From Heterodontus francisci (lineage: Eukaryota): a stretch of 64,000 nucleotides of DNA. The stretch spans positions 6,204,725 through 6,268,724 of the forward strand of contig NC_090421.1 of assembly GCF_036365525.1 (NCBI RefSeq), given 5' to 3'. The notes beneath the pieces were generated by a model. That model was given only the letters and a program-made list of their open reading frames with translations. It was not told the DNA's origin and made no database searches. Shown one piece after another: positions 29,889-58,463 of the stretch; within the stretch, counting starts at the first letter, position 1, and each line of letters begins with the position of its first letter. The translations under genes and the position numbers were made by a program.

Positions 29889-30347
29889 TTACTTGCACAC
29901 GTTGACCCACTCGCTGACCCTACATTCATCACACAACACGTAGCAACACCAATGGAAACGGCAGTGGCATCGCTCGTTTCGGGTCTGTTTGAGGATGTTG
30001 TGGCCTCTCCCACAACACAGACTGTCACAGTTATCCATCCCTTGGCTCGTTTTATTGCAGACCCTTCCCCGTGTCCCCGGCGAGTCCGTGCCGAGGTCCA
30101 TTTCGCAGAAATCCGGAGATTTCTCAAAGTACACCATGTCCTTGTAAATCCTCCTCCGGTTTTGCTTCAGGCTGAACTGGCCTGTATTTTTATTGTGAGT
30201 TTTGATGAGAACCGCATTCTGGAATCGCTCCTTTAACACAGTCCCGACCTGTCGAAAATCAGGGGTCACCTGCCAGCAGGTTTTAAACTGGCAACTGCCG
30301 GAAGTGCCATGACATTTACACTTGCGCTTCATGTTGTCAATCACTGC
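29889..30347 (-). CDS. wnt10b: Wnt10b coding exon 4 (terminal)
   Basis: TTTCAG acceptor; [17 protein letters not shown]...[28 protein letters not shown]. Total CDS 1152 nt, 383 aa. Confidence 0.95.
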
Positions 30348-30639
30348 CTGAAATTTAGAAGAAAAGCAATCAAACAGAAATACCAAAGGAAGCACTGGAG
30401 CAATGAACAAACCTGCTAACCCCTCTCCAGCACCCTCTTAACACAGAAGTCAAATCAAAATGAACCATGTTAATGATCTGATGAGATCTCAGTCATCAGG
30501 TTAAATGCTATCCCTTCAAGGACTGAATGTCTCTTCGAGCTTTCAGATATACTTGTAAATCTCCAGTGATTCTGCTCAGAGCCAGCCTTGGAAGGGTGGG
30601 GGGGGAGGGGGGGAAGGTATGTCTTTTAGTTGGAAAATA

Positions 30640-30897
30640 AGAAAAGACTTGCATTTATATAGCGCCTTTCACAACCTCAGGACATCCCAAAGCGCTTTAC
30701 AGCCAATGAATTACTTCTGAAGTGTAATCACCATTGGAATGTAGGAATGCAGCAGGCAAATTACGCACAGCAAGCTCCCACAAACAGCAATTTGATAATG
30801 ACCAGATAATCTGCTTTTGTGATGTTGAATGAGGGATAAAGATTGGCTGGGACACCGGGGAGAACTCCCCTGCCCTTCTTCGAAATAGTGCCACGGG
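30640..30897 (-). mobile_element. Deu-domain SINE
   Basis: Reverse complement of the SINE core and tail, in Wnt10b intron 3. Confidence 0.8.
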
Positions 30898-31547
30898 ATA
30901 CAAAAAAAGAAAACCAAATGCTGGAAATACGCAGCAGGTTAGTCTGCATCTATAATGGGGGAAAGGCTGGGGTTTGCAGCCCTCTCTGTTTTTGTCTTTT
31001 CCCTGCATTTGTTGTAACAGGTTACAGTGCTGCCCAAGGAACAGCGAAGAACAACACATGTTGTTTTTAATGGACTGGGGGCATTACAATGTTACCAACG
31101 TCAGGGCTTTAATATATACCAGATCTGTGACATTGCTCACAGTGAGTGGTCTCACCTTGTGATTTTTGTCACTTTCTCATTCTGTGATTCTGATTTCTCT
31201 GTTTACCTTTGCCTTGTGTCGTAATGTGTGTGTTTCATTTCCAGCTGGTGCATGTTTGGCTCATGAATTTGTATCTTATGATAGTTCATTTGTGTCTGTG
31301 TATTTATCTGCAGTAATTTGTGTGGACTTGCAGGTTTACCTGTATGATGCTTATATGCGTTGACTGACATTTGTTACAATTGCTGTTTGTCTGCAGCTGT
31401 GCGACTGATTTTTTTTGAGTGTCTGTTTCGTTTTATTAGTCACTAAGAGTGCCATAGCAACCTGATGGCTTTCTTTCCTTAAATGATTGTGTTCTTCCAG
31501 TGGGATGTGTTTCGGATTGATCTTTATGTACAATACAGCCTATTTCC

Positions 31548-32198
31548 ACCCATAACATTGCCCAACTCTGTCCCTGCTTCAGCTCATCTGCTGCTGAAAC
31601 CTTCATGCCTTCGGTACCTCTAGACTTGACTATTGCAACGCGCTCCAGGCCGACCTCCCATCTTCCACCCTTTATAAACTTGAGTTCACCCAAAACTCTG
31701 CTGCCTCTATCCTAGCTCATACCAAGTCCCATTCCCCTATCAGCTCTGTGCTCGCTGACCTACATTGGCACCAGGTCAGGTAATGTATCTGCAGTATTTT
31801 GCTTTTATTTCAAATTTTCATCCTTGTTTTCAAATCCCTCCATGGCCTCGCCCCCCTCCCTCCCCTCCCTATCTCTGTAACCTCCTCCAGCCCTACAACC
31901 CTCTGAGATCTCTGCGCTGCTCCAATTCTGGCCTCTTGCCCATCCCCAATTTTGATTACTCCACCATTGGCGGCCGTGCCTTTGGCTGCCTAGGCCCTAA
32001 GCTCTGGAATTCCCTCCCTAAACCTTTCTGCCACTCTCCATCTCTCTCCTCTTTTATGACACTCCTTAAAACTTACCTCTTACTGTCCTAATGTCTCCTT
32101 ATGTGGCTCAGTGTCAGATTTTGTTGGATAACATGCCTGTGAAGTGCCTTAGGATGTTTTACTACATTAAAGACGCAATATAAATGGAAGTTGTTGTT
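31548..32198 (+). mobile_element. L2 LINE 3' end
   Basis: PYLCNLLQPYNPLRSLR...GGRAF..LGPKLWNSLP...LLKTYL; (GTT)n tail. Confidence 0.88.
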
Positions 32199-56324: not shown

Positions 56325-56572
56325 CATAGAATCACTCAAATGTACAGCACAGAAATTGACCATTCGGCCCATCTGCTCCGTGCTGGTGTTTATGATCCAC
56401 TCGAGCCTCCTCCCACCCCTCTTCATCTCACCCCATCACCATATCATTCTATTCCTTTCTCCCTCACGTGTTTATCCAGCTTCCCCTTAAATACATCGAT
56501 ACTATTCACCTCAACCTGTGGGAGCGAGTTCCACATTCTCACCACTCTCTGGGGAAAGGAGTTTCTCCTGAA
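56325..56572 (-). mobile_element. CR1 3' tail
   Basis: RRNSFPQRVVRMWNSLPQ...FKGKLDKH and CR1 tail, in Wnt6 intron 2. Confidence 0.85.
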
Positions 56573-57621
56573 CTCTCTATGCAGGTAAACCCTGATTCTG
56601 ATCTGACAGTGCATCTGCTGTCTATACAACTTGCAGTTTATACGTGTAGACAAGACTTGGTTCCGCAGTGTGTACCCAAACTAGAAACACTTCCACACAT
56701 CTACAGGTAGCTTGAGCCGAACCATTCGCCGCTCCGATTCACCTTTCTGTCGCGTATCTGTTCCTTTTTGCAGTGCAGCTGTTAAATTTCCCATTAGGAC
56801 AGGAATGATGTGTCGAAAAAAGAATCAAGGCTGGGTTGGTAAACATGTCATTTATTAAATGCAAAAAAAAAAAAGCAATAACGATTCACAGCCTTTAAGA
56901 AAAAGTGACAAATGCTTCTTGCAATTACTAGAATGCGGGCGCACGAGTTCATCAAGGGTAGATTCCGATTGGGGAGCTGGGAATACACGGGGGTAGAAGA
57001 AGTGGTATTTTGGAATTCTAAAATCACAACACAAGTCGGTTTCCTGAACGCTTAGTGCCTGCTGGAAGCTACTATACATTGAAATGAAATCTGTACCAGG
57101 CTGAGGGACAAAGAATCCAGTGGTTTATCTTCACCCTCTGTTTGATTTCAGCTCACATCCCCGTCTCTTTCTGCATTTTGCCTCTCGCTTAATACCGATT
57201 TTTTCTCACCTCTCTGCTTATCTGCCTCGCTTGTTTTCTCTCTCTCTTTCTGTCTCTGTCTGTCTCCGACTGTTTGAGTCCCTGTTTCGGATTCTCTCTC
57301 TCTGTTTTTGCCTCCTCGCCCGCTTTTCTCGGTGTCTCCGCTCAACACTCACCCACAAAGTGACCTGCAACAGAATTCAGCTCCTTCCTTCGGGGTCAGA
57401 AATACCGATCGCTTTTCTCTTATGGCCCTTGTCTCGACTCGCATAGACAAACTGGTAGGATTCCCCCGCGGGGGCGACACGCATTTGGGTGTGCTTTAAA
57501 TATTCCAGAATCGTCTTCAAATGGATGGTGTGAATAATGCTGGACTAAGAGGTTGGAACCAACCTCCCCGCTCCCAACCCACCCAGGATCAGAGCGAACA
57601 GACCAGAACGAGAGTTTTTAC

Positions 57622-57842
57622 CTTGTTGCAGGATTTTGCCAAAGTATTTATTGTGAATTGTACAGTTCCACTTGCGGAATCGGAACTGGTACTGACACTC
57701 CCGGATCCCAAGCCGGGCCCCCTTCGCCACCTCGCTCACGATCTCCGGTTCGGTTTGACACAGTTCAGCCTGTTTTCCAGCCAGCCGCTTGGTCTTCCTG
57801 CAGATACTATTGGGATCCATGACCAATGGGCTCCCCACAGCC
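57622..57842 (-). CDS. wnt6: Wnt6 coding exon 2
   Basis: TTCTTGCTGCAG acceptor; AVGSPLVMDPNSICRKTKRLAGKQAELCQTEPE...ECQYQFRFRKWNC...KILQQ; GTAAAA donor; 221 nt. Confidence 0.97.
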
Positions 57843-58386
57843 CTGCAGCAAGAAATAAAACAGCAGCAAGATGGTTAACTTCAGTGCACTAAATCACTCT
57901 CCCCCGCCCCCACCCCACACACGGACCAAAATACACAGGGACCCGCTAGGTTTGGAGAGAGCTTTTCCTTACAGGCTAGACAGCCGCGGTGCACAAGACC
58001 TGCCTCGGGAAAGTGAAGGGCGATTGGACCCAAAAAACCACTCGGCAAGTTGTGCAGCCGTGGTGCTAAAGTCTGATTTGAAACGCGCACACAGAAAGAA
58101 AGGGGCAAGAGCCATAAATCCGATTCAAGAAATTCGGATCGGTTGTGAATCTTTGCGTGAACTTCGCCTGAGTCAGGTCAAGGTGACTCTCTGGGATATC
58201 TCTATTCTACAGGTGCTGCTTGCAATTGAGATTAAGGAAAAGTTGCCAGCTTAATGATCTCTCTCTCTGTCCTGTCTGTCCGGTTCAGACCCCTCACTCT
58301 CTCAAAGTCTCCTCCCGCGCTCTCTGTTACAAATCCCCGTGCCTTTTCCCCAATGAGGGAGACAAGACAAATATCAGCGCACTTAC

Positions 58387-58463
58387 CACCATAGACTGAT
58401 GATGTTCGCAGGGTACAAAAGGCAAAAAAACAGTCGGAGCTGAGCTCCGGCGAAAGGCACCAT
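58387..58463 (-). CDS. wnt6: Wnt6 coding exon 1 (signal peptide)
   Basis: ATG at 58463 gives MVPFAGAQLRLFFCLLYPANIISLW+TG, then a GTAAGT donor; 77 nt, phase matches exon 2 to form the Wnt6 LWWAVGSPL motif. Confidence 0.92.

Follow-up and report, generated by a model that had tools for sequence, protein, structure and literature searches.

Mammalian WNT1 and WNT10B lie head to head, pointing away from each other. Does any jawed vertebrate keep a Wnt6 gene between these two, and if so, is that gene an ancient second copy or a later arrival? The stretch considered here, 64,000 nucleotides from the horn shark Heterodontus francisci (RefSeq assembly GCF_036365525.1, contig NC_090421.1, forward-strand positions 6,204,725 to 6,268,724; hereafter the window, numbered from its first letter), encodes an intact Wnt6 gene, designated Wnt6b, directly upstream of an intact Wnt10b on the minus strand, with the first coding exon of a Wnt1-type gene diverging from it on the plus strand. 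Order and orientation are Wnt10b <- Wnt6b <- -> Wnt1. We consider it probable that this is the elasmobranch form of the cluster and that its Wnt6 is the ohnologue belonging to the Wnt1/Wnt10b copy of a duplicated gene block.

Three Wnt genes in one stretch

Six-frame motif scans and inspection of splice sites delimit a four-exon Wnt6 gene of 353 codons, running on the minus strand from 58463 to 46977. On the same strand, from 39326 to 29889, lies a four-exon Wnt10 gene of 383 codons. The spliced frame of each is open and closes with a single terminal stop. From the Wnt6 stop to the Wnt10 ATG is 7,650 bp, so that an initial annotation of the window, made from its letters alone, was exact in placing a full Wnt6 about 7.6 kb upstream of Wnt10 on one strand. 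The eight coding exons, with the evidence for each, are:

58387..58463, minus strand: Wnt6b coding exon 1, signal peptide (ATG; GT donor, phase 2)
57622..57842, minus strand: Wnt6b exon 2 (AG/GT sites; Pfam wnt, E value 2.7e-16)
55863..56164, minus strand: Wnt6b exon 3, with intact hairpin-1 motif WEWGGC (motif, splice-site and profile scans)
46977..47438, minus strand: Wnt6b exon 4, with acylation site Ser216, C-terminal domain and stop (splice site, motif; stop)
39262..39326, minus strand: Wnt10b coding exon 1 (splice sites, spliced translation)
38819..39081, minus strand: Wnt10b exon 2 (splice sites; Pfam wnt, E value 2.4e-12)
35276..35640, minus strand: Wnt10b exon 3, containing codon 190 (splice sites)
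29889..30347, minus strand: Wnt10b exon 4, with acylation site Ser247 and stop (100% identical to Heterodontus francisci Wnt-10b, P0121)

All six introns are of the GT-AG type, in phases 2/1/0 that are the same in the two genes, and an AATAAA signal occurs 65 bp past the Wnt6 stop. Each protein has 24 cysteines beyond residue 25 and carries the acylation motif CKCHGxSGSC, its serine being residue 216 in Wnt6 and 247 in Wnt10. The exon-2 frames of both match the Pfam family wnt (PF00110). Against a Wnt profile, the six stop-to-stop frames that hold exons 2-4 of the two genes score at E values between 7.6e-79 and 1.8e-26; of 2,819 frames, none of the others does better than 0.21, a gap that argues against chance similarity. 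Because frames, splice sites and cysteines are all intact, a pseudogene reading is rejected; the terminal branch of Wnt6 is short (0.028, against a median of 0.1 in the 34-row tree described below), which argues for a constrained, working ligand. If expressed, the products would behave as ordinary secreted Wnt ligands, with a signal peptide, acylation by Porcupine of the hairpin-2 serine (the acylation site in Wnts, according to passages of 10.1101/2021.07.19.452875), transport by Wntless and binding to Frizzled.

The third gene was found through a short motif scan, which returned a plus-strand frame ending in NNSGRWW. It opens with an ATG at 63762, continues through a hydrophobic leader and ends TGGTG/GTAAG at 63853/63854, a Trp-Trp phase-2 junction identical to the one that closes Wnt6 exon 1; the window does not reach the remainder of the gene. 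Two further features follow:

63762..63853, plus strand: Wnt1-type first coding exon, signal peptide to Trp-Trp junction (motif scan; phase-2 GT donor at 63854)
58464..63761, no strand: 5.3 kb separating the start codons of the head-to-head Wnt6b and Wnt1-type genes (CpG-rich)

Scored against 1.84 billion proteins, the 31-residue exon gave three matches. All of its residues (31/31) agree with database protein P0273, at positions 31-61 of the latter, and 26/30 (87%) agree with P0274; in both of these PF00110 lies downstream of the N-terminal region. With the named Wnt6 or Wnt10 rows compared, P0273 shows no more than 47% identity, and its wnt domain matches the solved Wnt3, 3a, 5a, 7a and 8 weakly. 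Since the two matched proteins continue into a wnt domain and P0273 differs so far from Wnt6 and Wnt10, the exon is assigned to a third Wnt gene. No usable match for the exon or for P0274 came from the ESM Atlas, and NCBIfam matched 0 of 3. Encoding a signal region only, the exon is missed by similarity and profile scans: tblastn with 21 named Wnt proteins, together with a profile built from them, found nothing in the window outside the eight exons better than an E value of 0.085, and no Wnt9 exon. We take its NNSGRWW-ending N-terminus to resemble that of Wnt1. That resemblance, elimination and the linkage described in PMC12318234 together suggest the name Wnt1. The initial annotation had predicted Wnt1 on the right, divergent and on the plus strand, just beyond 64 kb; side, strand and orientation hold, whereas the first coding exon lies inside the window.

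The two divergent genes are separated by 5,299 bp from ATG to ATG. Cut into 2-kb bins, the sequence between 54 and 64 kb has CpG observed/expected ratios of 0.61-0.70 (five bins), against 0.18-0.38 for the initial 30 kb (15 bins). The interval probably holds both promoters, and would offer a compact target for probing shared Wnt1/Wnt6b regulation. Two broad CpG-rich domains, 37000-44000 over the Wnt10b start and 54000-64000 over the Wnt6b and Wnt1 starts, are candidates for regulatory DNA.

Identity and origin of the Wnt6b copy

An ordinary Wnt6-Wnt10a pair, with a Wnt10a that merely looks like Wnt10b, would show the same tandem order, and BLAST scores of the window Wnt10 to Wnt10a and Wnt10b are nearly equal. 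The protein, however, is identical at 383/383 residues to RefSeq horn shark Wnt-10b (P0121), an annotation already in existence. Database searches here listed one representative per 90% cluster; in that with Wnt10 exon 4 (568 matches from 582 candidates), the best 120 of the 568 include the Heterodontus francisci protein Wnt-10b, 100% identical, and a Wnt-10b-like protein of skate, 90% identical. A 40-row tree places the window Wnt10 in a 21-row Wnt10b clade at 100/100, where it and the skate protein are sister to all bony-vertebrate Wnt10b. A separate bamboo-shark Wnt10a (P0236, on a 118-Mb record) falls outside that clade and is only 65% identical to the window protein. Chimeric Wnt6/Wnt10a models (P0146, P0223) distort the root of this tree, so only the Wnt10b split is taken from it. 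With a Wnt1-type exon also next door, we give the ordinary pair next to no probability; unless the 40-row tree is an artefact, it is refuted. Identity to a named RefSeq protein and placement at 100/100 make the window gene Wnt10b, as the initial annotation had held, and the 10b-type motifs it quoted are present in the exons.

Canonical Wnt6, by comparison, is the copy adjoining Wnt10a. The starling read-through model P0001 runs from canonical Wnt6 (83% to frog) into Wnt10a (82% to boa), and electric eel Wnt6 and Wnt10a (P0038 and P0151) share one record, with locus tags two apart. Chimeric or mixed canonical Wnt6-Wnt10a models in the database (P0001 from starling; P0146 and P0223 from sturgeon and turtle) distort trees, yet reveal the tandem pair. 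In the skate Rhinoraja, Wnt-6-like and Wnt-10b-like both occur on one 11,531,874-bp record, consistent with the linkage in the window. Window Wnt6 is 85-89% identical to four full-length elasmobranch proteins named "Wnt-6-like". Canonical Wnt6 of frog and fish is 81-82% identical to it, a short thorny-skate model 78%, coelacanth Wnt-6-like 71% and rat Wnt6 67%.

Five Wnt6 trees were built, with 21 unnamed rows excluded from all. The search with Wnt6 exon 4 (476 matches from 544 candidates) placed five elasmobranch proteins, four of them named "Wnt-6-like", near the top of the best 120 of the 476. A quick tree of 60 rows groups elasmobranchs with coelacanth at a Shimodaira-Hasegawa-like approximate likelihood-ratio test (SH-aLRT) value of 90. 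In a careful 34-row tree, a clade at 95/91 (bootstrap/SH-aLRT) unites the window protein with five elasmobranch proteins and coelacanth Wnt-6-like, and canonical Wnt6 from Callorhinchus, Xenopus, amniotes and both teleost copies forms another at 92/92. The elasmobranch and coelacanth Wnt-6-like proteins stand apart from canonical Wnt6 in four of the five trees. Each group holds a cartilaginous and a bony fish, so the split as drawn would predate their parting. Coelacanth Wnt-6-like (P0062) has five of six residues chosen, after the alignment was inspected, as typical of the elasmobranch set; elsewhere among 135 rows, at least three of the six occur only in five elasmobranch rows and one sea-urchin row (3/6). 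P0062, on a 19.3-Mb record, appears to be a fast-evolving second Wnt6. Teleost wnt6a was considered as the same ohnologue and rejected, since it groups with canonical Wnt6 in three trees (60-, 34- and 58-row).

In none of the five trees did a row from tetrapods or ray-finned fishes fall into the elasmobranch Wnt6 group. Both lineages thus likely lack this second Wnt6, as judged from cluster representatives that conceal members; the suggestion that its loss was special to mammals is not borne out.

Several results weigh against an ancient ohnologue or the naming of its Wnt10 neighbour. Removing the signal peptide and a variable loop (27 rows) leaves the topology the same at SH-aLRT/bootstrap values of 42/52, for elasmobranchs with coelacanth, and 93/42, and the same split in a 58-row tree has 60/64, again for elasmobranchs with coelacanth, and 94/68. 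In a 135-row fast tree, which includes invertebrates, Callorhinchus falls in with the elasmobranch set (SH-aLRT 89.7), and the long-branched coelacanth row is placed with cyclostomes. Trees that unite every cartilaginous-fish Wnt6 survive approximately unbiased (AU) tests (p 0.093, and on the 27-row set 0.17 and 0.106), so that single orthology is still allowed. No elasmobranch canonical-type Wnt6 appears among the best 120 of 476 matches to window Wnt6 exon 4, or among the best 120 of 1,313 (from 2,580 candidates) to Callorhinchus Wnt6. Pairwise scores do not separate the Wnt10 types (517 bits for gar Wnt10b, 515 for boa Wnt10a). Because tree support varies and the AU tests do not reject the alternative, the argument for a retained Wnt6 on the Wnt1/Wnt10b paralogon, which the initial annotation had proposed, rests on synteny; four of the five trees agree with it and one is contrary (AU p 0.09-0.17). 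The trees favour two ancient Wnt6 copies, without proving them.

Elasmobranch canonical-type Wnt6 being missing from both lists, the Wnt1/Wnt10b-linked ohnologue might instead be the only Wnt6 of elasmobranchs, the copy on the Wnt10a side having been lost, and one member of the group, from thorny skate, is named plain "Wnt-6". Yet hidden members are expected where one representative stands for each 90% cluster, canonical Wnt6 being 88-91% alike between frog and fish; gar and coelacanth canonical Wnt6 are equally absent from the best 120 matches to Callorhinchus Wnt6. The absence is thus weak evidence of loss. Four of the five elasmobranch entries are named "Wnt-6-like", and a passage of PMC10115646 counts wnt6b as one of the ohnologues that chondrichthyans have retained. 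We regard such reciprocal loss as unlikely, and a second, canonical Wnt6 may lie elsewhere in the horn shark genome.

Alternatively, the gene could be canonical Wnt6, or a more recent duplicate of that gene, brought in between Wnt1 and Wnt10b in elasmobranchs; this would suit both the AU results and the one tree that puts Callorhinchus canonical Wnt6 with the elasmobranch set. An intact four-exon gene would then have had to land in tandem upstream of Wnt10b, just as Wnt6 sits by Wnt10a, and also beside Wnt1, the neighbour of Wnt6 in amphioxus and lamprey according to passages of PMC6060547; coelacanth Wnt-6-like, moreover, shares five of the six chosen elasmobranch-type residues. A move of this kind seems very unlikely.

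Under the preferred reading, an ohnologue retained in place, a Wnt1-Wnt6-Wnt10 block would have been doubled when an early vertebrate duplicated its genome. In one copy Wnt6-Wnt10a would have stayed and Wnt1 would have been lost. In the other, Wnt1 and Wnt10b would have survived, joined in sharks, rays and coelacanth by Wnt6 (wnt6b), which appears to have been lost in tetrapods and ray-finned fishes. Removing the middle gene from the order in the window would yield the head-to-head WNT1/WNT10B pair of mammals. The term "ancestral-type" used for the cluster in the initial annotation is secure as far back as the Wnt10a/Wnt10b duplication; deeper than that it calls for caution, since passages of PMC6060547 give amphioxus and lamprey a Wnt9-Wnt1-Wnt6 cluster and a separate Wnt3-Wnt10 pair.

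Arg190 of Wnt10b and the left flank

Codon 190 of Wnt10b (35401-35399) is CGG, encoding Arg where the hairpin-1 motif WXWGG has its second Trp, so that Wnt10b reads WERGD. At the aligned position in 246 named Wnt rows, Trp occurs in 225, a gap in 18, Gly in two and Arg in one, and the sole Arg row is the horn shark entry P0121 itself. Skate Wnt10b-like retains the Trp, yet has in common with horn shark the Asp two residues later. CGG and TGG are one base apart, and P0121 and the window probably come from the same assembly; assembly error, polymorphism and fixed change are for these reasons all possible. The remainder of the protein has no decay by its sequence, and its terminal branch in the 40-row tree is 0.058, against 0.17 for skate. 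According to passages of PMC13434646, other Wnts need the WXWGG hairpin-1 Trp for Wntless-dependent secretion, and Ala at that position sharply lowers surface level and secretion of mouse Wnt3a and human Wnt5a.

A bolder reading, to our minds quite unlikely, is that horn shark keeps the whole pre-loss jawed-vertebrate cluster, that Wnt1 and Wnt6b share the 5.3-kb head-to-head interval as promoter, and that Wnt10b is naturally impaired in secretion by Arg at a Wntless-contacting Trp. Were it true, slowly evolving Wnt6b would carry function as Wnt10b weakens, a mirror of tetrapods and ray-finned fishes, and the locus would offer a natural test of the handover of Wnts to Wntless.

Downstream of Wnt10b, no protein-coding gene was found in 1-29800. 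Arf3, which had been expected on the left, was not found in the left flank of about 29.9 kb, where no frame contains an Arf motif, although exons in shorter frames may escape. Among 276 flank frames with a length of 42 residues or more and less than 30% self-repeat, Pfam matched three, all to reverse transcriptase, while both of two positive controls matched wnt; Rfam gave 0 matches. Positions 1-29800 hold reverse-transcriptase fragments of long interspersed nuclear elements and other repeats (for example 10217-11143, minus strand, Pfam RVT_1, E value 3.5e-33), and internal repeats account for about 10 kb of the window.

Relation to known Wnt clusters

Kuraku 2021 is said to be the reference behind the published account of wnt6b in cartilaginous fishes. 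In that account (PMC10115646), passages on the skate treat wnt6b as a previously characterized ohnologue retained in chondrichthyans. The retained copy is thus already described, under this name. The likeness is a second Wnt6 in cartilaginous fishes; the difference is that those skate passages give no coordinates, neighbours or orientation and do not mention horn shark. In zebrafish the name wnt6b is used in another sense.

Another likeness is with an X-linked set: passages of PMC12318234 (preprint 10.1101/2025.03.13.642935) place Wnt1, Wnt6b and Wnt10b, the same three genes, among eleven signalling genes on the X chromosome of five elasmobranchs. The label "Wnt6b" there comes from an automatic orthology tool, but the report still has a Wnt6 on one chromosome with Wnt1 and Wnt10b. 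Its passages state chromosome linkage only, and horn shark goes unnamed in those of the preprint. For horn shark, X-linkage is not to be assumed, since the record that bears P0121, at 37,754,575 bp, exceeds the 16.4-28.8 Mb that a passage of 10.1101/2025.02.26.637739 gives for most elasmobranch X chromosomes; the thorny-skate Wnt6 record, at 8.67 Mb, is below that range. Should the locus be X-linked without full compensation, dosage effects would be possible, as passages of PMC12318234 suggest.

The retained Wnt6 and its linkage to Wnt1 and Wnt10b are thus largely known in sharks and rays, and will surprise few specialists. No text that gives the order and orientation of the cluster, or names horn shark, was found in a search that mostly left out subscription papers and is therefore no proof that the arrangement is unpublished. 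What the window contributes is an order and orientation fixed for one shark, with explicit and useful spacing, and, as a remaining point of use, the Trp-to-Arg change in Wnt10b.

With amphioxus and lamprey, the window shares a Wnt1 adjoining Wnt6; it differs in that, in passages of PMC6060547, their Wnt10 pairs with Wnt3, and in that a Wnt9 exon was not found here. With the canonical jawed-vertebrate Wnt6-Wnt10a pair it shares a Wnt6 upstream of a Wnt10 on the same strand, whereas here the partner is Wnt10b, a Wnt1-type gene is adjacent, and the Wnt6 is 81-82% identical to canonical frog and fish Wnt6. In the mammalian WNT1-WNT10B pair, as in the window, Wnt1 and Wnt10b diverge, but in the window an intact Wnt6 stands between them. 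One stretch of DNA thus shows how WNT6-WNT10A and WNT1-WNT10B could both derive, by complementary losses, from a three-gene block.

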